A stretch of 64,000 bases of DNA from a virus. Positions within the stretch are counted from its first letter, which is position 1. Every line of letters begins with the position of its first letter. The stretch lies in the UHGV virus genome UHGV-1366828; one strand, written 5' to 3'. This document shows, piece after piece, positions 18,736-63,953 of this stretch. The translations under genes were made by a program, and so were the position numbers. The notes beneath the pieces are model-generated. The model worked only from the letters and a program-made list of their open reading frames with translations. It was not told the origin of the DNA and made no database searches.

Positions 18736-21324
18736 TTAATTGGAAGTGGTAAAGGTTAAAGTATTGTCACCTGTAACTCTTGTTAGCGAAAGAATTGTTC
18801 TGTAACCACTTGCATCTACAATATCTTGTTGCTTTGTTATTACATACAATCCGCTAGACACGTGACGTTGACCATAGAATAAGGAGTTTATTCTAACATA
18901 GCTCATTAACATAGCAGGACGTAACAGACCTTTAAGTGTTAACTTCGCTTTGACAGGGAATTGTGTCATCTGTGTCCACCAAGTTTTCTGTGCCTGCGTA
19001 GTTTTATGATATCTGCTAGAAGTTGTTGAGTTAGGTGAGTATTCCGTTGTAACATTTCCTGCGTTGTCTATGTTGTATACATAATCTTCTGTAGGAATCT
19101 GTTGAGAATATTTGTATAGTAGACTCCACGAATCATCATTTTCTATCTGGAAATTCATAACATAGTTACTTGGTGTGTCTCCTACATATCCGGAATATCC
19201 AACATCTACTTCATATACATCAGAGCCACTTAACGATTCCGCAGAAGCGTCTGCTGTAACTTTTACAACTCTAAAGTATGGTCCATTGTATTCGTTTGTT
19301 ATATCATCAACAATGGTTAAGTGATATGTAGATTTTCCTAGAGACGTAGTTTGGTCACCAGAGGGGGACATTTCCGATACAAGATAGTTTAGATATGTTA
19401 TCGGGCTCATTCCCTCTTTAGGTTCTAGATGTGTCTCTCTGTCGTCACCAGCTATAAGTCTTCTAGCAATGGTCTTATTCTTCATTCCAGTGAAGACTTG
19501 TCGCAAGCCATATTTTTCAGAGAACAAGATTTCAATTATCTTGTCGCTGGGCTTACAAACAACTCCAGGGAAGTTATAAGAACGAGATGCTAACTGTAAA
19601 GCATTGCTAGTACAGAACAGAGTATATGTTATTCTCGAAGAAGAAAAATCAATGTTTGAAGTCAGTTTAGTTATGATAGCTTCTTCTTCTCTGAATATGA
19701 AGGATGGCGAGCTGTAATCACCATAACTTATTTTTATTTTACCGTAGCCAACACTACTAAATATCTTGTCCAGTAGATTTGGGTCTTGACCAGGTTCAAT
19801 CTGATATACCATGTTGATTGTGTACTGATTTACTGTACCGTTTACTTTTACTATATTGATACTTTGCATATAGTTAGGATAATCAACCCTGACAGTATTT
19901 TCAGACTTTCTATATTTATATGTACCAAATGTGTAGTTTCCTATTTGTAAAGTGATAAACGGACTTTCAACAAATGTTCCTACACTCAGTAGTCCTGTAG
20001 AACGCTGTGTAGAAATGTTTGTAGGAGTTTCATTTATTGTAACTCTTCTCACAACTTCTGCTTCGTCTACGGGACCAGCACTTCTTAATCTACGCTGTGC
20101 TTCAACATATTCTGCATAAGAGGAGTATTTTTTATTTAAATCAGTGTCATTATCAAATTGTTGTTTGCTAATAATGTTAGAGATTGTTTTCTTCCAGTTG
20201 TCAATGGTTCCGCTTATTGCGTTGCCTAATTTATTAACACCTTCATTGAAAGCATTTTCAACGGAAGAGCCTGTTGACTCGGAATTTTCGGGTCCTATAA
20301 CTCCTGTAGCTGCATCTCTGTAACGAAGAACAACTTGCCAAGAACATTCTCTGTAATAATTTCTAGTTGCTATACCGGTTGGAGTACACTCGACCATTCT
20401 ACCATTTCCAATAAACATTGCAGTATGTCCGTTAGCTCCTGCACCAGATGTGCCCGTAGCATTCCAGACAAGGACGTCTCCGGCTCGCATTCCGGTTCCG
20501 TTATCAATGTTTACCATGGAACGAACATCGGTGAACCCGTTCGCTACAAAACAACGTTTCATGTCGCCTGTATAAGAAGCGCCTGTTTGAACGCCTGCTT
20601 TGTTCCATGCAGAAATAATAAAAGCAGAACAGTCATATGAGGTGGGTCCCCATCTATTTGTCATGCTGTACGTATAACCTTTATTGCACTGAGCAACTGC
20701 CCACTGGATTGCTTTGTCTGTTGCAGTGGGTTGACTTGTTCCGTATAATGAATTTGTTGAAGATGTATAAGGAGCAGTGTACCCACTGTACTTGTTATAG
20801 AAAGCATACGCATGAGATCTACGAACATCATAATTATAAACAGCAGGACGTTCATATTGCTCAAGGACTAAGTCACAAGCAGCACGAACGTCCGTAGCTC
20901 TCTTTAATTGATTTCCCCAAGATGCATTACTAAAGGCATTGTCAGCAAAGGTTAACTGTGTGTCAAGATTTCCAACTGAAGTACCACGTTGTTTTGCAAG
21001 CTCATAAAGGTCTCTTTTATATGTCCACCAAGTCCATTGAGCAAGTCCGTATCCTATAGAATCGTGAACAAATTTATCTTTGGAGTATGCTCCACTATCT
21101 ACCTGTTGAGTATAGTCAGCATCAGACCAACCATATCCGTTTTGAACATTGTTTGCAATAAGTGCACTTTCTGCTTGGAAGTTGCCCATTATACCGGCGA
21201 TGCCTTCAGAGCTGTACCCTTTAGACCGGAAAAATGACCATATCTGTTGTTCAACTGTTTGATTTGTTCTGTTTATAGCGTTAGCTCTTAGTCCGCTGCC
21301 CTCAATGTCTTGATATACTTGCAT
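18736..21324 (-). CDS. baseplate hub / tail-associated lysin (862 aa): N-terminal lysozyme-like domain + Cys-His peptidase (CHAP/NlpC-P60-like) + C-terminal structural domain
   Basis: GIMGNFQAESALIANNVQNGYGW...GYGLAQWTWWTYKRDLYELAKQRG...EQYERPA is paralogous to the domain in the 62538-63953 endolysin. CSAFIISAWNKAG ... GHTAMFIGNG gives the Cys/His peptidase signature. Confidence 0.65.
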   Translation of the reverse strand: MQVYQDIEGSGLRANAINRTNQTVEQQIWSFFRSKGYSSEGIAGIMGNFQAESALIANNVQNGYGWSDADYTQQVDSGAYSKDKFVHDSIGYGLAQWTWWTYKRDLYELAKQRGTSVGNLDTQLTFADNAFSNASWGNQLKRATDVRAACDLVLEQYERPAVYNYDVRRSHAYAFYNKYSGYTAPYTSSTNSLYGTSQPTATDKAIQWAVAQCNKGYTYSMTNRWGPTSYDCSAFIISAWNKAGVQTGASYTGDMKRCFVANGFTDVRSMVNIDNGTGMRAGDVLVWNATGTSGAGANGHTAMFIGNGRMVECTPTGIATRNYYRECSWQVVLRYRDAATGVIGPENSESTGSSVENAFNEGVNKLGNAISGTIDNWKKTISNIISKQQFDNDTDLNKKYSSYAEYVEAQRRLRSAGPVDEAEVVRRVTINETPTNISTQRSTGLLSVGTFVESPFITLQIGNYTFGTYKYRKSENTVRVDYPNYMQSINIVKVNGTVNQYTINMVYQIEPGQDPNLLDKIFSSVGYGKIKISYGDYSSPSFIFREEEAIITKLTSNIDFSSSRITYTLFCTSNALQLASRSYNFPGVVCKPSDKIIEILFSEKYGLRQVFTGMKNKTIARRLIAGDDRETHLEPKEGMSPITYLNYLVSEMSPSGDQTTSLGKSTYHLTIVDDITNEYNGPYFRVVKVTADASAESLSGSDVYEVDVGYSGYVGDTPSNYVMNFQIENDDSWSLLYKYSQQIPTEDYVYNIDNAGNVTTEYSPNSTTSSRYHKTTQAQKTWWTQMTQFPVKAKLTLKGLLRPAMLMSYVRINSLFYGQRHVSSGLYVITKQQDIVDASGYRTILSLTRVTGDNTLTFTTSN

Positions 21325-43984: not shown

Positions 43985-45397
43985 TCAATTCTTTTTCCAC
44001 ATGTAACATGACTGACCACAATCATATATCTCTACAAAACTGTGTGCGATCATTAACTCATCGTTTGATGTTCCTTTACCATAATGTGTTCCAAATAGCT
44101 GGTCAAAGCCTCTTTGTCTTAACAGGTTGTCTGTAATATGTTGACCCGTGTTTATGTTAAACCAGTGTCGTGTTGGAATACCATAATCGCGAAGTTCAAA
44201 CCCCAAGGAAGTATAAACGTCGCCGTTAAATTTACTGTTATCACAATAGGATATAATGGACGACGGAGAATAGTTCTTTACAAAATAACTAAATAACTTT
44301 TCAGCTCCGCCAACTACATATCTGTGAGAACAGTATCTTATAAGCTCGTATTCGTAATTCTTGTTATATCTTGGACGACCGAACGTCATAATTGAAACTA
44401 GTTCATCATTACAGTAAAGTCCCAAATCAATTGTGCTTTTAGCATAACCTTGTAGATGATATTTGTTCAGATAATTTATACAATCTTTCTTGTTGACTTG
44501 TTTTACAACACAGTTACGAGCATATACTTTTTCTCTGGGCAGAAGCAAAGAAACAATTTTATCCCAATCATCCCAATCCCAAACATGAATACATCTATAG
44601 CCGTTATCTTGAGCTACTTTACTCTTCTTATAATGATAATCTTTCTGAAGTGTTGTTGACCCAGGAATAGGACAGAATGTCACGTTGTGACAAGGCCAAG
44701 GATTTATTTCTATAAGAATGTCGTTTACTTTGAAGTCGTATTTAAAATGTTTGTTGTCATATCCGATGTAGAATTCTCTTGTATATTCAATTCCTGCAGT
44801 ATCCAACAATTCTGAAAACTTGGCGTTAGGCTTACTATCATTTGTATATTTTGCAAGGGCAAAAGAATTTACAACTCCATACTTGTCAAGGTTTGTAGCT
44901 GACCTTGCATGTTTAGCATGCTCAATCTTTTCTGGAACATTGAAATAATGTTTGTATCGTTCTTCAATTAGATGTTGTAATTCTTCATGAGATTTTTTAC
45001 CCCATGCAGCTTTACAACCTTCCGACACCTTTTCATAATGTTCTTCTTTTGTTATCCCCTTGCTTTGTAGATTGGCAAGCATCGTAGCGTAAACTTGTTT
45101 GTCATATTTTTCTTTGCTTCCTGCATTCTTATACTTAGTTTTAAGAACTAACCTTGCAGACTGCTTGCGTGGCTTTCTTATACCGTATTCTTTTATGACT
45201 TTATCTAATGTCCAAGATGTAATGTTGTACTTCTTCATCAGAAAGTCATAAGTACAGTTTTTATTCAAATATAAATCCGTAATTTCTTCACGTGGAATTT
45301 TTGACAATACATTCTTTTCAAACTTTTCTCTGTTAATTCTTTTAAGAGTTTCTGATGTTCCATTAGACATTTTACTGTTACTCCTGTGTGTAAACAA
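43985..45397 (-). CDS. endonuclease-like protein, paralog A (470 aa): N-terminal module + conserved C-terminal domain shared with the 45485-46987 gene
   Basis: C-terminal about 230 aa nearly collinear with paralog B (GYRCIHVWDWDDWDKIVSLLLPREKVYARNCVVKQV ... YELIRYC ... GGAEKLF.YFVK.YSP.S..SYCD.SKF.G.VY..LGF). EINPWPCHN + YHYKKSK is reminiscent of a PD-(D/E)xK-type nuclease core. Confidence 0.5.
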   Translation of the reverse strand: MFTHRSNSKMSNGTSETLKRINREKFEKNVLSKIPREEITDLYLNKNCTYDFLMKKYNITSWTLDKVIKEYGIRKPRKQSARLVLKTKYKNAGSKEKYDKQVYATMLANLQSKGITKEEHYEKVSEGCKAAWGKKSHEELQHLIEERYKHYFNVPEKIEHAKHARSATNLDKYGVVNSFALAKYTNDSKPNAKFSELLDTAGIEYTREFYIGYDNKHFKYDFKVNDILIEINPWPCHNVTFCPIPGSTTLQKDYHYKKSKVAQDNGYRCIHVWDWDDWDKIVSLLLPREKVYARNCVVKQVNKKDCINYLNKYHLQGYAKSTIDLGLYCNDELVSIMTFGRPRYNKNYEYELIRYCSHRYVVGGAEKLFSYFVKNYSPSSIISYCDNSKFNGDVYTSLGFELRDYGIPTRHWFNINTGQHITDNLLRQRGFDQLFGTHYGKGTSNDELMIAHSFVEIYDCGQSCYMWKKN

Positions 45398-45484: not shown

Positions 45485-46987
45485 TCAACTGAAAAATGTG
45501 TACTTGGCTTGACCCGCATCATATACCTCTACAAAACCGTGTTGAATCATCAGTTCTCTATTTGATGTGCCTTTACCATAATTGGTATGAAACAGATTGT
45601 CAAAGCCCACTTTGTTTACAGAAGAATCTAGTATATGTTGTTTACTATTCATGTTGTACCAGTGTTTACTAATATTTATACTTTCCAAGGTCATGTTTAA
45701 TTTCTGGTACACATTACCAGAAAATTTGCTCATATCACAGTAGGAAACAACCGATTTTGGAGAATACTTCTTTACAAAATAATCAAACAGTTTCTCCGCT
45801 CCTCCAATAACAGACTTACAACTACAATAACGAATCAACTCGTATTCATACTTATCTGTATACCGAGGTTTACCAAACGTCATCAAAGAGATTAAATCGT
45901 CATTGTAAAATAGACCGACTGCTATGTCCGAAGATATATAACCTTGTAAATGATAGTTATTTAGAAACTCTTTCGTTTCTTCTTTAGGTAGTTCTTTAAC
46001 AGTACATTTTCTGGCATATACTTTTTCTTGAGGACGAAGTAAAGAAATTATCTTCCCCTTATCATCCCAGTCCCAAATATGAATACACCTGTAACCATTC
46101 TGAGAAGCTAACCTAGATTTGTCTCTATGATATGTAGGACTTTTAACGTTATCATCACCAAAAGGTGACCATGTTGAATTGTGTGTAGCAGAAGGATTTA
46201 CTTCTACTAGTATATTTTGTCCTGTTAATTCAAAATCAAAACTTTTGTTAATAAGTGTTTTTTCTCTACTGAATTCTATGTTGTTATCAGACAACAATAT
46301 TCCAAATTCTTGATTAGGAGAAGATAGACTGCTGTTCCCCTTACTAAATTGACATTGAGGAAGCAATGTAGGAAACTCTACTCCATACTTTTCTAAGCAT
46401 GTTTGCTTCATGCTCTCTATAGCTTTTTCACGACTGCCAGGAAGCTGAGAAACATTTGTTATACCGTATCGTTCAATCAAGTTATTTTTCTGAGATTCTG
46501 CTATATGATCATAGGCTGCAGAAATTGAACCATAAGTTCTAATAAAACCTTCTTGAACTAGGTCAACACGTTGAAAAGGATTGTCTACACCATATCGTTC
46601 TTGGCAAGTCTTTTTAATTTTCTTCCGAATATCTGTGTTACCCGAAGCTGATGGTGTCCCGTATCTTTCAATACACGTTTCCTTAATCTTTTCTGTGTTG
46701 TTGTAATTAGGGTCTCCATATCTAGACTCTTTGGATTGCTTTATCCGATTCTTTATCGTATCGGATTTTGACGGATTGTCTACACCGTACTTCTCTATGC
46801 AGGTATATCTAGTTTCCTGTTGTCTACTATGAATCGGAATGCCTTGTTTCTCAAGAGCATTAACAACTACATACTTTGACGTATTATAATGTTTAGAAAT
46901 ATAATCCGCAGAGTGCGAACTATACAACCTTTCCAGTTCTTCTTTGTTTACAAAATCAAGAAATAGCTGTGTTTTATTTTTTCTCAT
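45485..46987 (-). CDS. endonuclease-like protein, paralog B (500 aa) with 4-5 N-terminal repeats C(I/L)E(K/R)YGV.NP...K.K.T
   Basis: Repeats CIEKYGVDNPSKSD / CIERYGTPSASGN / CQERYGVDNPFQ / ERYGITNVSQ / CLEKYGVEFPTL, then the conserved C-terminal domain shared with paralog A. Confidence 0.5.
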   Translation of the reverse strand: MRKNKTQLFLDFVNKEELERLYSSHSADYISKHYNTSKYVVVNALEKQGIPIHSRQQETRYTCIEKYGVDNPSKSDTIKNRIKQSKESRYGDPNYNNTEKIKETCIERYGTPSASGNTDIRKKIKKTCQERYGVDNPFQRVDLVQEGFIRTYGSISAAYDHIAESQKNNLIERYGITNVSQLPGSREKAIESMKQTCLEKYGVEFPTLLPQCQFSKGNSSLSSPNQEFGILLSDNNIEFSREKTLINKSFDFELTGQNILVEVNPSATHNSTWSPFGDDNVKSPTYHRDKSRLASQNGYRCIHIWDWDDKGKIISLLRPQEKVYARKCTVKELPKEETKEFLNNYHLQGYISSDIAVGLFYNDDLISLMTFGKPRYTDKYEYELIRYCSCKSVIGGAEKLFDYFVKKYSPKSVVSYCDMSKFSGNVYQKLNMTLESINISKHWYNMNSKQHILDSSVNKVGFDNLFHTNYGKGTSNRELMIQHGFVEVYDAGQAKYTFFS

Positions 46988-47136: not shown

Positions 47137-48156
47137 TCAGGCCTTGATCTTACCCGCTACCAGGAGGCTAGGATTGAGAAGCTTCAGGTCGTACATCGTA
47201 CTCCAGCCTTGTGTGGTTCCACCATCGGCGAACTGAAGCAGCTGAGTAGGAACAACGCTCATGTAAGGAGCATAAACAGCGGCGGAGCTCATTAAATCGC
47301 TGCCGTTGACACCTACAATGAACTTACCAGCTTCAAGAGCAGGAGAAACGAACACCTTAAGAGAACCGAGAGTACCAGCGAAGTAAGGACCGTTAACATC
47401 GCTCACAGGAGCAGGAGTCCAGTCACGAATGAAAGCAAACACCGGAAGAAGGTCGCTGGCGCAAATCATGTAGTTAGGAACAAATTTCTTTGTACGGTCG
47501 TACACTACGCGCTTGGCATCTTCAACAGTTTCCATGAATCCCTGATAGTGCTCTGTTTTGGAAACACCTACATTAGGAGTCTTGCTCCATTCAAGGGTTG
47601 TGTCGGTCGGGGTATTGTCGATAAGAAGCTGAACAACTTCTGTGTCGATTTCATATTCGAGCTGACCAACAGCCTTCTCTGCAAGCTGGTCACCAAGGTC
47701 GAAACCGTAGTCGGTCTTAGCCTGGAAAGCAGCAATCTGAGAGTAGTAAACAGCGATACGACGAGCCTTCGCAACAAGAGCGATATTCTTCATCTCTGCC
47801 TTGAGCATCGGAAGGTCGTTCTGAGGAACAACTACGTTGTCGTAGTAATAAGCTACACGGTCAGTGGCAACAAGAGTTGTGGTAATTGTCTTGCCGTCAG
47901 CGCCAACATTCACATAAGTGGGATCACCAGTTGCGTGAGTAACCTTAACGTCGTACTTAACGCCGTCCTTCTCAAACGCGCCCTTAACAACAGGAGTCCA
48001 GGAAAGAGCAAGAGAAGCACCAGCCGTCGGAGTTTCAACAACACGGTCACCAGTGTAATCAGCATCGACATCGCCGAGAGCGAACGGGCTGTTCAGAAGC
48101 TTACCAGCAGTGGTCTGACCCTTGGTCTTACCAGCAGTATACTCAATGTAAGTTAT
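47137..48156 (-). CDS. major capsid protein (T4 gp23-like), exon 2 (339 codons)
   Basis: The frame stays open upstream of the annotated TTG back to a TAG at 48223-48225; no Shine-Dalgarno site; sequence continues exon 1 across the junction (...PMSSMSGF|ITYIEYTAGKTKG, compare T4 ...PMNSPTGQVFALRAVYGKDP); C-terminal ...AAVYAPYMSVVP resembles gp23 ...GIYYAPYVALTP. Confidence 0.7.
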   Translation of the reverse strand: MTYIEYTAGKTKGQTTAGKLLNSPFALGDVDADYTGDRVVETPTAGASLALSWTPVVKGAFEKDGVKYDVKVTHATGDPTYVNVGADGKTITTTLVATDRVAYYYDNVVVPQNDLPMLKAEMKNIALVAKARRIAVYYSQIAAFQAKTDYGFDLGDQLAEKAVGQLEYEIDTEVVQLLIDNTPTDTTLEWSKTPNVGVSKTEHYQGFMETVEDAKRVVYDRTKKFVPNYMICASDLLPVFAFIRDWTPAPVSDVNGPYFAGTLGSLKVFVSPALEAGKFIVGVNGSDLMSSAAVYAPYMSVVPTQLLQFADGGTTQGWSTMYDLKLLNPSLLVAGKIKA

Positions 48157-49151
48157 CAAATGTGTTACGAATAATTCATCTATCTTTATACTAATTTTTT
48201 GAAGGGATTTGTTAACCTTCCTCTAACATAACCTTCAGGAGGATCGCCAATAAACATATGCTCTTCTTTTCCGTTATTCCACCAACGAGAACCTTTATGT
48301 GCTTCTATACTTCTTTGTATAGAATATTCCGTGGGTTTCTGCCCTTTACTAGATTCTCTCATCTTGAGAATTGTTTCTTCTGAGCGTTTCTTACCAGTAT
48401 TCGCTTTAGCTCTTTTTAGTTTAGTTTCTTCAGATTGTTTTTTTCCTGTCCAGTAAGCTAACTTGTACCTTAATTCTGGAACAAGATTAACATTACCGTC
48501 TCCACCATCAGTTAGATTATACCCATTAGGATATCTACACTGTAGCGTTTCAATCCAGAAACTTTCTTTTTCGTTTAATTCTTCAAGAGTTTCAGCTGTA
48601 TCAATAAGCTCTCGCGAAAAATTTTCTAGCCCATAGAACTTAATGCTACTTTTAATATAAGTTCCGCTAGTAATGTAATTCTCATCAAGTTTTGGAAAAG
48701 AATATTTATGTTTACCAACATACACTTTATGTGTAATCAGGTTTGTTAGTTTATACACATAACCATACATATTTTAATCTCCTCTAAAGATAAAATATAT
48801 TAAAAAGTAGTAATTCAAATATTAGAGGTATTTGAAAAAGGGAGCTAACCTCTGTCCTACTTTATAACTAAGTTATAAAGATATCAAATTATTCTCTTTA
48901 TGTTACCATAAAGTTCAGACTATATCATCATCCTATATTGTTTTATCCTCTATAGGACGCCTCGCACTTGGACCTCATTTGAGGTCTACTCTACTCTTTT
49001 ACTCGCATAAGTTTTTCTCTTATGCTACAATTTCGATAGTCGTTGAGCCTTCTCTAATTATTAGAGCTTGGCTGCTGATTGTCCCGTCGGGATTTTCCAG
49101 CAATTCACGAGGTTTTTTACTATATATTACTATATAGGGATTCTAAACTTA
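48157..49151 (-). mobile_element. Group I intron (995 nt) carrying a GIY-YIG homing endonuclease ORF
   Basis: P1: exon GGAUUU pairs with intron GAAUCC (U.G at the splice site), and the intron starts with an in-frame UAA. Core elements P AAUUGCUGGAAA, Q AAUCAGCAGC, R GCUCAACGACUAUCG and S GAUAUAGUCUG are present. Intron ends ...CACAUUUG (omega-G). The HE ORF lies 3' of S. Confidence 0.7.
48186..48770 (-). CDS. GIY-YIG homing endonuclease with NUMOD3 DNA-binding repeats (194 aa), intron-encoded
   Basis: YGYVYKLTNLITHKVYVGKH (GIY...YIG), R..E...N.. core, tandem GKKQSEETKLK / GKKRSEETILK NUMOD3-like motifs; AGAGGAG site upstream. Confidence 0.75.
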   Translation of the reverse strand: MYGYVYKLTNLITHKVYVGKHKYSFPKLDENYITSGTYIKSSIKFYGLENFSRELIDTAETLEELNEKESFWIETLQCRYPNGYNLTDGGDGNVNLVPELRYKLAYWTGKKQSEETKLKRAKANTGKKRSEETILKMRESSKGQKPTEYSIQRSIEAHKGSRWWNNGKEEHMFIGDPPEGYVRGRLTNPFKKLV

Positions 49152-49439
49152 AAATCCAGACATAGAGCTCATCGGGTGGACAATTACTAGCTCATTAGCA
49201 ATTAAGTTAGGAAGAGCAACAGTTGTAAGGTTCAGGCAGAATTTCTTATAGAGTCCGAGATCTGAACGCTGTGTGCCAGAAGCAGCATCAAAAGCTTCAG
49301 AAAGGAACTTTGAAGTATTGTCAAGCACCTTAGCAATAACTAGCTTCTTGTGGTTATCCATCTTCTCGCCGTTGTGAGTTCTGCCGTAAACGGATTCAGA
49401 AACTGCAAGACGACCTTTGTATTGTTCTAAAAGATTCAT
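49152..49439 (-). CDS. major capsid protein (gp23-like), exon 1 (96 codons)
   Basis: KKLVIAKVLDNTSKFL ... LTTVALPNLIANELVIVHPMSSMSGF parallels the T4 gp23 N-terminus (KQAIIAKIFENQEKDF ... MVRRAIPNLIAFDICGVQPMNSPTG). Confidence 0.7.
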
Positions 49440-49459: not shown

Positions 49460-50980
49460 TTATTTAAGTCGTGCTAGAGACAGTAAGTCATCGTCTACTA
49501 AATCGTCTTGAACGAAAGGAATTATTTCCTTCTTAGGAGACGTAATCTTAGCACTTAACTTCTCCTGTAGTTGCATTGACTGAAATGGTAACTTACTTAA
49601 GTTAAGATTTACAGACTGTAGACTTTCGCATACAGAATCAATATCGTCAAATGTGTAACTATCAGGCAATCTATTTAAAATTTCATTCTTCGATACACCA
49701 AGTCTCACTGATTGCGATTCAACATAACGGTTAACCGCACCAGCGGCTATCTTCTTGTACTTTTCAACAAGATTGTTTGAAGCACTTAACTTCTTGGTGT
49801 ATTCTGTCTTCTTTTGAGCTAAGTCTTTCTGAACTGTCGAAAGTTTTTCAGTTAAAGAAGTGATTTCTTTACTGCTATCTTCATTAGCAATCTTCAGCTG
49901 TTCGGTTAGTTCCGCAACTTTACTTCTGCTCGAAGTAACTGATTCAGCTAACGCCTTAGAACGTTCAGTTAAACTATTCTTAGACTTAATAGCTTCATAT
50001 TTAGCGGAAGCTAACTGTTCGTTTAACTGACTAACTTGCTGCTCATAATTACTTAACTTCTCTTGTAGAGAAACAACTTTCTTCGCTTCCTCTGATAACT
50101 TCAGAATCGCTTGTTTGTACTTAGTCATCTTTTCGTTACATGACGCTTCTTTAGTATAACTAACTGACAACTTCTCCTGTAACTCAATTAGCTGCTGTTC
50201 TTTCTCTTTATTTTCTTTCAAGGAGGCTTGAAGCTGTTCTAACAAATCTGCTTCGGTAGTATCGACTGCAACGCCTTCGTTAACAACTTCTTTATAATTA
50301 ACAGAAGAAGGTTTTTCTACATTTTCTTCTTCTGGGGTATATTCAATCTGGAGAGTATTCAATGTCTCCTGCATAATTTTTCTGTCTGACGCAGACGCTT
50401 TTTCTAGAGATTCCTGTAATGCCTTTTTTAACGGAATAGTGGAATTTCCAACAGACTCCGTAACGTATTCCATACGAGCAGCCTTTACTGCGGGTAGAAG
50501 AACAACGTCAAAGCAACTAAAATCATATGTGTCTTCGTCTACAGATTCATTTCCATCAATATCTGTTGACACATCTCCTGAACCTCTAGAGGAGATTCCC
50601 ATCTTATATCCATAGTCGCAAAGGGTCTTTAAGATGCGACCATTCGGAGTGTCAAGAATGTCAAAAGAGCTAATCAGCTGCCCTTTATTATTCTTCTGAG
50701 GAGGATTGGGCATACAAATAGCAATCTTCTCCATGTCAATCTCTTGACGGTCAGCAGGGTGACCAAGTTCTCCGAAATATCCACCATTTTCAAATGTTTC
50801 CTGAGCTATAGGACTGTTAAAAACATTCTCCCAAAGCTGTTCAGAATATTTTCTTCCATTACGAGTAGGATTTATAATGTCAGCAACTGGTCCGGACAGA
50901 CGACCTAATATAGGGCTGCCTTTTTCGCTGACTAGAGCTGATCTGTCAAAGGTCAACTCTTCGTTTGACTTTCTATCCAT
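49460..50980 (-). CDS. prohead protease-scaffold fusion (506 aa): N-terminal protease-like domain + long coiled-coil + C-terminal tail
   Basis: Sits between portal and capsid genes; residues 200-440 are a heptad-rich Q/E/K/L/S coiled coil; call is by position and composition. Confidence 0.5.
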   Translation of the reverse strand: MDRKSNEELTFDRSALVSEKGSPILGRLSGPVADIINPTRNGRKYSEQLWENVFNSPIAQETFENGGYFGELGHPADRQEIDMEKIAICMPNPPQKNNKGQLISSFDILDTPNGRILKTLCDYGYKMGISSRGSGDVSTDIDGNESVDEDTYDFSCFDVVLLPAVKAARMEYVTESVGNSTIPLKKALQESLEKASASDRKIMQETLNTLQIEYTPEEENVEKPSSVNYKEVVNEGVAVDTTEADLLEQLQASLKENKEKEQQLIELQEKLSVSYTKEASCNEKMTKYKQAILKLSEEAKKVVSLQEKLSNYEQQVSQLNEQLASAKYEAIKSKNSLTERSKALAESVTSSRSKVAELTEQLKIANEDSSKEITSLTEKLSTVQKDLAQKKTEYTKKLSASNNLVEKYKKIAAGAVNRYVESQSVRLGVSKNEILNRLPDSYTFDDIDSVCESLQSVNLNLSKLPFQSMQLQEKLSAKITSPKKEIIPFVQDDLVDDDLLSLARLK

Positions 50981-62537: not shown

Positions 62538-63953
62538 TTAAAATGTTCCAGAATCTACCCAACCATAAACTGTTGAACCCTGCCCCGGAACCTTAACTAA
62601 ATGATACGGGTGTTTACCGTTACGGTTAATAGCTGTAATTGTAGCCTTTCCTGGTCTGCATCTAAATCCAAATGCAAATGCTGATGAACTTGTATAGTGT
62701 GTGTTACCCTTAAAATTGACTACATCGCCCACTTCAGCAACTTTTGGAGCAACAGGAGTTGCAGGAGTCGGCGTAGGGGCAGGGGTTACATTTCCGTACT
62801 TTTTTAGGAATGTTTCTCCCATATTGGCTCTTGCCGCTTTCACTGCCTCGGACTGGTTTGCAGGTCGTTCGTAGTTTACTAAAATGAAGTCCGATGCTGC
62901 ACGAACATCTTTTGCATTCTTTATTGTGTCGACTAGACCTTGATAACCTGCCATTTCGGAAACCATAAATTCCAACTGCATCTTCGGGTCGCCAATTGAT
63001 CTGTTATTGGACTTAGCGTAGTTGTATAGTGCTTTCTTCCGTGACCAGTATGTCCACTGTACTAGACCATAGCCAACAGCATCGTTAACAAAGTTTGTGT
63101 ACGTACCATTGTCTACGCTTTCAGTATATGTCTTGTCGTTGTACCCCAAAGCTGCTTCGTAGGAATTCTGCATATTATTTGCTTGTAAAGCACTTTCTGC
63201 ATAAAGGTTTCCCATGATTGCAGCTACACCATACGGATTGTTGTAAACAGACATTAGGTAGTCCCACATCTGTTTTTCTGTCATTGCAGTTGTATTTCCA
63301 ACCGGAACAGCAGGAATAATATTCGATACATCGGTTGTTGTAGAACCTTCTGCAAGTACAATGTCCTTGATGTTAATCGGTGACATGATGCTGTTTGTAC
63401 CGCTTGCATTCTTATCGATAACTACGCGGTCACCGTTTATAGCTAATACAACCCAGACGTCATTCTTTACAAAATCAGGAATAAATCCTCCAGTGTACCA
63501 GGTATTTCCAATAACTTTAACTTTACTTCCAACCTGAATATTCGTGTTAGGAACAGTTATTGAAGGTGCGGCAGGAACACTTGTAGCAGCATCATCATAT
63601 TTCGGAAGTCCATATCCTCTAATATATCTGCTGTTAACTTGTCTGTTGGTAAATGCAACTGAATTATTGCAGTTTCCTTCAATAATTGTCATGTTCGTTC
63701 CCACAACAGAATAAACAATTCCTACGTGGTCAGCTACTCCTGTATTGTCTCCAAAGCCAGAATCTTGCCAATCATAGAAGATAATATCTCCTGGCTTTGG
63801 AGTATACGAATCATCTTCCATCCAACGGTTATGTTGCTGGAATAGTTGGATCATTCTAGGACAACTACATTCTGGGTAGATAATATCAGTGGCTCCGACC
63901 TTTTGTGCCACAGCAGATACAAATGTTGCACACCAAGGGTCAGTGTACGTCAT
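62538..63953 (-). CDS. endolysin (471 aa): CHAP peptidase + SH3-like + lysozyme-like domain + C-terminal SH3-like binding domain
   Basis: CHAP Cys/His (DPWCATFVS ... DHVGIVYS); AAIMGNLYAESALQANNMQNSYEAALGYND...GYGLVQWTYWSRKKALYNYAKSNN...NYERPA is paralogous to the hub-protein domain. The reading frame stays open to the window edge, so the N-terminus could extend further. Confidence 0.65.
   Translation of the reverse strand: MTYTDPWCATFVSAVAQKVGATDIIYPECSCPRMIQLFQQHNRWMEDDSYTPKPGDIIFYDWQDSGFGDNTGVADHVGIVYSVVGTNMTIIEGNCNNSVAFTNRQVNSRYIRGYGLPKYDDAATSVPAAPSITVPNTNIQVGSKVKVIGNTWYTGGFIPDFVKNDVWVVLAINGDRVVIDKNASGTNSIMSPINIKDIVLAEGSTTTDVSNIIPAVPVGNTTAMTEKQMWDYLMSVYNNPYGVAAIMGNLYAESALQANNMQNSYEAALGYNDKTYTESVDNGTYTNFVNDAVGYGLVQWTYWSRKKALYNYAKSNNRSIGDPKMQLEFMVSEMAGYQGLVDTIKNAKDVRAASDFILVNYERPANQSEAVKAARANMGETFLKKYGNVTPAPTPTPATPVAPKVAEVGDVVNFKGNTHYTSSSAFAFGFRCRPGKATITAINRNGKHPYHLVKVPGQGSTVYGWVDSGTF

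Follow-up and report, generated by a model that had tools for sequence, protein, structure and literature searches.

How a phage can make its major capsid protein from a gene that is cut by 995 nt opening with a stop codon is the question raised by the virus genome UHGV-1366828, of which one stretch of 64,000 nucleotides (the window, meaning the whole stretch that was analysed) was examined here. The intervening sequence lies at 48157..49151 on the minus strand, and an earlier sequence-only reading had taken it for a group I intron carrying a homing endonuclease gene. The present analysis led us to hold with high confidence that it is a mobile group I intron of subgroup IA, inserted after codon 96 of a gp23-type major capsid gene and predicted to splice itself out and to home, in an uncultured phage of about 140 kb with a T4-like module from gut metagenomes.

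Exon 1 (49152..49439, minus strand) is an open reading frame (ORF) of 96 amino acids (aa), codons 1-96, which ends in ...MSSMSGF and aligns colinearly with the first 96 residues of uninterrupted 435-aa homologs. Exon 2 (47137..48156, minus strand) contains codons 97-435 and the stop codon, and starts with AUAACU (ITYIEY). An in-frame TAA stands directly after ...ATGTCTGGATTT at the end of exon 1 (minus strand), as is the norm at the 5' junction of phage group I introns (PMC3073962); the intron closes with ...CGTAACACATTTG, its terminal G at 48157, and exon 2 follows with ATAACTTACATTGAG.... Exon 2 forms a 340-codon frame with neither an ATG nor a purine-rich Shine-Dalgarno (SD) sequence, and it appeared in the ORF list solely through a TTG made up of the last three intron bases. 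Conceptual removal of the 995-nt intron restores the reading frame exactly and gives a 435-aa gp23-type capsid protein, with ...AUGUCUGGAUUU|AUAACUUACAUU... as the predicted spliced junction and ...LVIVHPMSSMSGFITYIEYTAGK as the peptide expected across it (...MSSMSGF-ITYIEYTAGK).

The joined 435-aa protein matched the Pfam family Gp23 (PF07068) with 100.2 bits against a cut-off of 24.4, over residues 65-411, a range that spans the junction at residue 96. Its best match among 5.8 billion proteins was an uninterrupted 435-aa protein with 95% identity over the full length, and the junction ...HPMSSMSGF|ITYIEY... was gap-free in the alignment with a dozen uninterrupted homologs. Homologous capsid genes number roughly 3200. 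The exact joined protein is on record as P0122, and an uninterrupted gene encoding it is present on the Logan contigs L201 and L202, where the capsid gene has the same flanking genes as in the window. The coding sequence on L201 differs from the joined coding sequence of the window at 47 positions, all of them synonymous. The possibility that these contigs represent spliced transcripts was rejected: with flanking genes, 47 synonymous differences and a junction of the intron-less type, they are genomic alleles. Along with a further intron-less allele (L002), they define the insert as precisely 995 nt long (49151-48157).

What the sequence-only reading had said about the exons was thus borne out: the ORFs of 96 and 340 aa are collinear with gp23, exon 2 lacks a start codon and an SD of its own, an in-frame UAA opens the insert, and a terminal G precedes AUAACU. 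The alignment of the joined product with gp23-family proteins that it had proposed as a check gave the match across the junction and the identical uninterrupted genes described above. It was also right that ORF annotation misrepresents the capsid gene, as gene callers give two or three unrelated ORFs. The genes upstream encode a T4-type portal and an S77 prohead protease, which identifies the interrupted gene as the one for the capsid protein in a T4-like head module. Contigs of up to 142 kb carry the exon-2 ORF and the endonuclease in identical form. In GenBank and among cultured phages, no protein with more than 30% identity to the capsid protein was found.

The covariance-model search that had likewise been proposed for the minus strand detected the Rfam model RF00028 (Intron_gpI) at 48896-49161(-) with 106 bits, twice the gathering threshold of 50 (E=7e-28), over model positions 1-253 of 253; no Rfam match other than RF00028 was obtained anywhere in the 64-kb window. 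The exon strand of P1 is provided by the final 6 nt of exon 1, GGATTT (49157-49152), which pair with the internal guide sequence GAAUCC (49138..49143, minus strand; intron nt 9-14), with U.G at the 5' splice site. The ribozyme core (48896..49137, minus strand) consists of P2, P3, P4 (P/Q), P5, P6/P6a, P7 (R/S), P7.1, P7.2, P8 and P9, as derived from the Rfam alignment, RNAalifold and pair counts. The elements P (AATTGCTGGAAA, 49105-49094), Q (AATCAGCAGC, 49080-49071), R (GCTCAACGACTATCG, 49048-49034) and S (GATATAGTCTG, 48926-48916) were read from the sequence of the same strand. P1 and all four elements were found where the earlier reading had placed them. The 3' tail GUAACACAUUUG (48157..48168, minus strand) ends in the terminal G, and tails of the GUAA type are conserved throughout the family.

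Relatives were collected by searching IMG/VR with a 21-nt motif comprising the R element and adjacent bases, which returned at least 120 stretches, and by a search for capsid-gene loci, which returned 73; among the fetched loci nhmmer found 162 related cores. Twenty-two diverse intron copies were aligned (alignment A3), the interior of the long 3' loop of the window copy being trimmed so that its arms would align. RNAalifold recovered P3, P4, P5, P6, P6a, P7.1, P7.2, P8, P9 and a hairpin following P9 from this alignment. Base pairs were then counted in the canonical topology with P7 as a pseudoknot, and slid 3' partners and 500 shuffles served as controls. For 68 pairs in 11 helices (P3-P9, the P7 pseudoknot, P7.1, P7.2 and the post-P9 hairpin), 97.3% pairing was observed in the 22 relatives, compared with 34-41% for slid partners. 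Both sides had changed in 59 of the 68 pairs, and none of the 500 shuffles reached the observed values. Every pair covaried in P7.1 (7/7) and P7.2 (6/6), and P7 had three covarying pairs, all owed to one sequence. An invariant helix drawn by RNAalifold at alignment columns 118-125/174-180 was discarded as an artefact, since the program cannot draw the P7 pseudoknot. At the level of sequence and covariation, it was confirmed that 48157-49151(-) is a group I intron, with chance far exceeded. The presence of P7.1 and P7.2 between P7 and P3' in the modelled structure indicated the architecture of subgroup IA, which phage introns typically have; the features of the class have been described (PMC3984707).

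Pairing across the exon/intron boundary was examined in homologous introns at the same site in the more distant loci L182 and L190. These have exon GGAUAU with guide GUAUCC, compared with GGAUUU and GAAUCC in the window, a difference that, from the aligned sequences, is a compensatory change across the boundary and thus covariation of P1. At the other end of the intron, a P10 pairing may form between exon 2 bases +3 to +6 (AACU) and intron nt 3-6 (AGUU).

The intron contains a gene of 194 aa (48186..48770, minus strand), preceded by the SD GAGGAG (48784-48779) 8 nt before the ATG. The GIY-YIG/NUMOD3 endonuclease that the earlier reading had recognised in this ORF was substantiated by several comparisons. 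The tyrosine motifs YVY-(X)10-YVG have the same spacing as in I-TevI. The single sequence matched the catalytic domain of I-TevI weakly (E=0.002), and a profile of 25 homologs matched this domain (1LN0) with E=3e-15 over residues 4-88. Conserved in the homologs are Y6, Y17, G19, E69 and N85, of which E69 (nearly invariant) and N85 (invariant) are the equivalents of the I-TevI residues E75 and N90 (alignment A4). The NUMOD3 model PF07460 scored 22.7, above its cut-off of 20.4, more distant homologs have both PF01541 and PF07460, and the protein matched phrog_314 'homing endonuclease' with E=2e-40. T-even SegE was 32% identical over nearly the full length (E=8e-20). The closest protein relative from a cultured phage was an endonuclease of Staphylococcus phage SEP9 (42%). 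Between the window gene and the 98%-identical copy of locus L187, 17 codons had changed, 14 synonymously and 3 non-synonymously; a cluster at 90% identity has 65 members, and the full 194 aa is kept in 13 of 15 among the members listed. The predominance of synonymous changes and the retained length indicate that the ORF is under purifying selection, as judged from these codon comparisons.

The endonuclease gene lies in the expanded loop of a two-part hairpin after P9 (48169..48894, minus strand), for which we coined the label P9.1/P9.1a. Its outer arms, GAAUAAUU and AAUUAUUC, are at 48894-48887 and 48176-48169, and all 8 of their pairs covary; its inner arms, UAUCUUUAU and AUAAAGAUA, are at 48883-48875 and 48189-48181 (all minus strand). 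In most members of the intron family, a short hairpin (GAAUAAnU-GGAAACG-AnUUAUUC) comes after P9, with GUAAYAYAAUUG between it and the exon. The window intron has the same outer-stem arms as these compact sister hairpins, but 710 nt apart. The difference corresponds to a 648-nt endonuclease cassette (48190..48837, minus strand), found in the window and L187 and missing from the otherwise 98% identical intron of L005 and L006. The 3' domain of the ORF-less copy folds into P9 and a two-part stem (-24.9 kcal/mol, z = -2.5), with the top of the inner stem as the entry point of the cassette; the last codon and the stop of the ORF overlap the 3' arm of the inner stem by 4 nt. The compact hairpins of the sisters and the ORF-less copies place the endonuclease gene in a peripheral loop on the 3' side of the catalytic core. 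In these capsid genes the ORF of most sister introns is 5' of P3, and to judge from these positions the family has evidently gained endonucleases on more than one occasion.

Three further features were sought around the ORF, and none of them found support. A hairpin sequestering the ribosome-binding site upstream of the gene could be drawn by pairing CCUCUAA with UUAGAGG, but folding was no better than in shuffles (z = -0.78). For an origin signature of the sunY type, in which intron sequence flanking the ORF resembles the exon target site, the best local match was 6 nt, equalled in 431-449 of 500 shuffles, and the idea was rejected. Upstream of the ORF, the search for an operator-like copy of this target gave nothing significant (297/500 shuffles).

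Mobility of the intron was assessed from alleles of the capsid gene, which exist in several states at site 96 with 95-100% identity in protein. The site is empty in L002, L201 and L202, and also in L131, which is 99% identical and has an intron at codon 63 instead; it is occupied by the intron with its endonuclease gene in the window and L187, and by the intron without this gene in L005 and L006. Related introns occupy the same site in distant capsid genes, namely those of L182 (55% identity) and L190 (44%); the former has no ORF of at least 60 aa, and the latter an 89-aa NUMOD3 remnant. The exons have a GC content of 49%, compared with 37% for the intron core and 34% for the endonuclease ORF, a base composition that marks the insert as foreign as far as composition can tell. 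Taken as sequences sampled from a population, the site-96 alleles match a homing cycle at every stage (empty, with ORF, without ORF and with degenerate ORF).

The exon sequences flanking the site also differed between occupied and empty alleles. All intron-bearing alleles at the site read ATGTCTGGATTT|ATAACT, and the close intron-less alleles L002, L003, L131, L201 and L202 read ATGAGCGGCTTC|ATTACT, with one base different in L004; the sequence around the insertion site of an intron-less allele is ...CCGATGAGCTCTATGAGCGGCTTCATTACTTA.... GGATTT was found in none of the intron-less alleles of the set. Six of the 47 synonymous differences from L201 fall within 12 nt at the junction, a clustering equalled by 17 of 20000 random placements, with a binomial probability of 5e-6 for those 12 nt. 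Two of these six differences restore P1, including the obligatory U.G, and one fits the 4-bp P10. A swap of the Ser codon TCT/AGC is unexplained by pairing, and is best read as co-converted donor sequence or as target-site immunity. Co-conversion with a bias to exon I is known for I-TevI (PMC2988022).

These elements can be assembled into the following course of events. The capsid pre-mRNA, made late in infection, would be transcribed through the intron, and ribosomes on exon 1 would halt at the UAA formed by its first three bases. The ribozyme would fold from P1 to P9, and the long post-P9 hairpin would return the distant 3' splice site to the core. Two guanosine-initiated transesterifications would then cut after the U of the P1 U.G pair and after the terminal G, and ligation of ...GGAUUU to AUAACU... 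would give an mRNA for the normal 435-aa capsid protein; we infer that the intron is spliced in this way in vivo. The endonuclease would be translated from its own SD. In a mixed infection the SegE-type enzyme would cut intron-less capsid alleles near the insertion site, and recombinational repair with an intron-bearing genome as donor would transfer the intron to the broken allele, along with a few exon bases on its flanks.

Several observations weigh against this account. The proposed P10 is just 4 bp long and is offset by 2 nt from the splice site. The spliced-junction pattern had 0 matches in the IMG/VR and JGI contigs, public assemblies that were searched for direct evidence of splicing. 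As for the endonuclease, the Arg of helix alpha1 in I-TevI is catalytically critical (PMC2248736, PMC2988022), and at the position of this residue (R27) the window protein has Leu (PKLDENY), with a conserved GKHKY after the YIG motif instead. The Pfam models of GIY-YIG domains were not reached, as PF01541 gave no match and PF19835 (SegE_GIY-YIG) scored 20.2 against a cut-off of 25. Finally, the ORF-less copies at site 96 show that the intron persists without the enzyme.

The points on the endonuclease would be explained if the intron splices but the enzyme has ceased to be an active homing enzyme, so that the distribution of the intron reflects vertical inheritance, general recombination or another nuclease. 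The ORF-less copies in L005/L006 and the degenerate ORF in L190, all at the same site, would then be read as signs that the enzyme is dispensable and decays. We regard this explanation as improbable, because the codon changes relative to L187 and the full length kept by 13 of the 15 listed members of the 65-member cluster argue for a protein still under selection. The missing Arg does not mark a dead enzyme either: this idea was rejected since T4 SegE, an experimentally active homing endonuclease (PMC2988022 Table 1), has the same variant. SegE and the 194-aa protein both lack the canonical Arg and both have the C-terminal motif W.NNG...PEGYVRGRL, on which grounds the protein was filed as SegE-like and not I-TevI-like. 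The site sequence in L002-L004, L131, L201 and L202 is moreover unlike the intron-bearing flanks, as would be expected for a live pair of target and immunity. An intron that homes by means of its own active enzyme is thus preferred, and the 194-aa protein is predicted to cut intron-less capsid alleles.

A second candidate for mobilising the intron was considered in the neighbourhood of the capsid gene. Directly downstream of it, at 45485-46987 (minus strand), lies a gene for a 500-aa DUF7487 protein that matched the PHROG families phrog_3339 (homing endonuclease, E=8e-75) and phrog_559 ('HNH endonuclease', E=1e-52). The C-terminal approximately 350 aa of this protein are about 48% identical to the product of the conserved next gene (43985-45397), which makes the two tandem paralogs. 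The DUF7487 gene was found in the window, L005 and L006 but not in L002, L007, L187, L201 or L202. In T4, segD lies between genes 23 and 24 (PMC2988022). Mobilisation of the intron in trans by the DUF7487 gene, in the manner of mobE with the T4 nrdB intron, would be in keeping with the PHROG matches, with the documented occurrence of trans-homing in T4 (PMC2988022), and with the joint presence of gene and site-96 intron in the window, L005 and L006 and their joint absence from L002, L201 and L202. It is nevertheless very unlikely: the co-occurrence fails in L187, which has the intron and endonuclease at 98% identity with just the conserved paralogous 461-aa gene and no DUF7487, and the intron carries a selected endonuclease of its own. 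It is scarcely conceivable that no splicing takes place and that the capsid gene is broken or the capsid is built from separate polypeptides of 96 and 340 aa, as the two ORFs given by gene callers might suggest, since the ribozyme core is intact and far above threshold, exon 2 has neither start codon nor SD, the flanking exon bases are adapted to pairing in P1 and P10, and this essential gene is found interrupted in the same way on many independent contigs, which reach 142 kb.

Introns in this capsid gene were not confined to site 96. Interruptions were detected in 19 of the 73 IMG/VR capsid loci, at about ten sites near residues 39, 63, 69, 78-89, 96, 99, 233, 265, 322 and 395. In one locus (L198, 365-4294) a single capsid gene contains four related ribozyme cores and is broken at five places or more, and another locus (L182, 79-4143) has three introns, at residues 39, 76 and 96. 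A second related group I intron is inserted in capsid codon 63 in L005 (2347-3557), L131 and L187; it scored 69.8 bits with Rfam, its core is approximately 80% identical to that of the window, and its 283-aa GIY-YIG ORF is 5' of P3, not 3' of P9. The window is without the codon-63 intron. The core motif AAGGYTCAACGACTATCGAAA was found on at least 120 viral contig stretches from IMG/VR (L008-L127), with up to four copies within a few kb (L044, L072). Judging by these matches, uncultured phages harbour this intron family in abundance and often in clusters. Within the core, a stretch of 46 nt (48895-48939, minus strand; from the 3' strand of P8 through P9, including S) was 91% identical to unannotated DNA of the Aeromonas phages phiA009 and phiA019, where the matches probably represent unannotated introns.

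The number of insertion sites, the presence of up to four or more introns per gene, the location of endonuclease genes either 5' or after P9 and the free-standing neighbour raise the speculation that the conserved N-terminal part of the capsid gene is a battleground of homing elements, in which the endonuclease serves as a weapon in mixed infections and the intron benefits its phage. A precedent is given by phage PhiPA3, whose intron endonuclease cuts the RNA polymerase gene of a competitor (PMC11620839). We consider this doubtful in the present case; if true, the element would be beneficial to its phage beyond being merely selfish.

Other genes of the window were also inspected. The gene upstream of the capsid gene (49460-50980, minus strand) encodes an S77 domain (residues 37-176) and a long C-terminal region of approximately 330 aa, which weakly matched the coiled-coil family TPR_MLP1_2 below the Pfam cut-off; this gene may be a protease-scaffold fusion. 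Nearly all large ORFs of the window (1-64000) are on the minus strand, and no tRNA genes were found in it. Phage_lysozyme2 domains occur in two large proteins, combined with CHAP in one (62538-63953) and with Amidase_5/NlpC_P60 in the other (18736-21324).

Introns that are not removed lead to errors in annotation, capsid phylogenies and classification in this group of gut phages, and hundreds of 'capsid' fragments consisting of exon 2 only are present in public protein collections. Site 96 provides an unusually complete natural series (empty, intron with endonuclease, intron alone, decayed endonuclease), including co-evolution of exon and guide, in an essential late gene with very high expression. 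It would be a good system for studying the splicing efficiency needed to supply the hundreds of capsid subunits per particle, and could reveal whether competition between gut phages is shaped by homing enzymes directed at the capsid gene. The annotation problem and the biology of site 96 are not new in kind. The less ordinary aspect, which goes beyond what the sequence-only reading had claimed, is a capsid gene interrupted at about ten sites, with up to four related cores in one gene.

Among known systems, T4 td/I-TevI and nrdD(sunY)/I-TevII share with the window a phage-borne group I intron of the P7.1/P7.2 (subgroup IA) architecture, and the td and sunY introns likewise have a GIY-YIG endonuclease gene with its own SD and an in-frame stop right after the 5' splice site. 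The ORF of sunY is also located 3' of the core, so that sunY would be the nearer analogue. The td ORF is located within the loop of P6 (PMC3073962), whereas in the window it occupies the loop of the post-P9 hairpin. The ORF has its own SD and lies 3' of S, as the earlier reading had said, but the likeness that it saw to td/I-TevI does not hold for the loop or for the enzyme, which is closest to the SegE class. Moreover, the T4 introns reside in genes of nucleotide metabolism and the window intron in a late structural gene, and unlike in the T4 introns, neither a hairpin sequestering the ribosome-binding site nor an operator-like copy of the target site was demonstrable in the window. With T4 SegE the window protein has in common GKH...L(D/N)xxY..SG in place of the canonical Arg/His and the C-terminal W.NNG...P(E/D)G(Y/F)(V/I)(R/K)GRL; SegE is free-standing, between inh and uvsW, whereas the window protein is intron-encoded and has a NUMOD3 module.

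At the RNA level, the closest relatives from cultured phages are in the RNA polymerase genes of the Bacillus phages AR9 and PBS1 (68% identity over 73% of the core). The introns of AR9/PBS1 and of the gut jumbo 'Jug' phages are in other host genes, namely those for RNA polymerase, terL, nrdD and DNA polymerase. In the portion of the 'Jug' phage study that we drew on, about 18 group I introns per genome are described, metatranscriptome reads support 37 of 76 predicted introns examined, and capsid-gene introns are not reported (PMC12880540). The window, with one intron in 64 kb, is unlike these intron-rich phages.

The sequence-only reading had called an intron in the capsid gene notable. The intron is indeed in this gene, but its notability is lessened because group I introns of capsid genes are already documented in LittleE, Tuc2009 and SP-15, to which the window adds one more; the capsid families or insertion sites differ. 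For the mycobacteriophage LittleE, splicing of the capsid intron has been shown by reverse transcription PCR and N-terminal sequencing across the junction, and the capsid-gene intron of the lactococcal phage Tuc2009 is cited in the same report (PMC3706429). The LittleE intron contains an antisense HNH gene, and its type was left uncertain. In the Bacillus phage SP-15 (KT624200.1 25479-27996, L001) the capsid coding sequence is annotated as joined around a Phage_endo_I-like endonuclease; its intron core is related to that of the window (nhmmer E=3e-10, L001 2285-2431), and the insertion is far downstream in the gene. A precedent for several introns in one gene is orf142 of Staphylococcus phage Twort, which reportedly contains three group I introns. 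Compared with orf142, some capsid genes of the clade to which the window belongs have four or more interruptions (L198), distributed over about ten sites.

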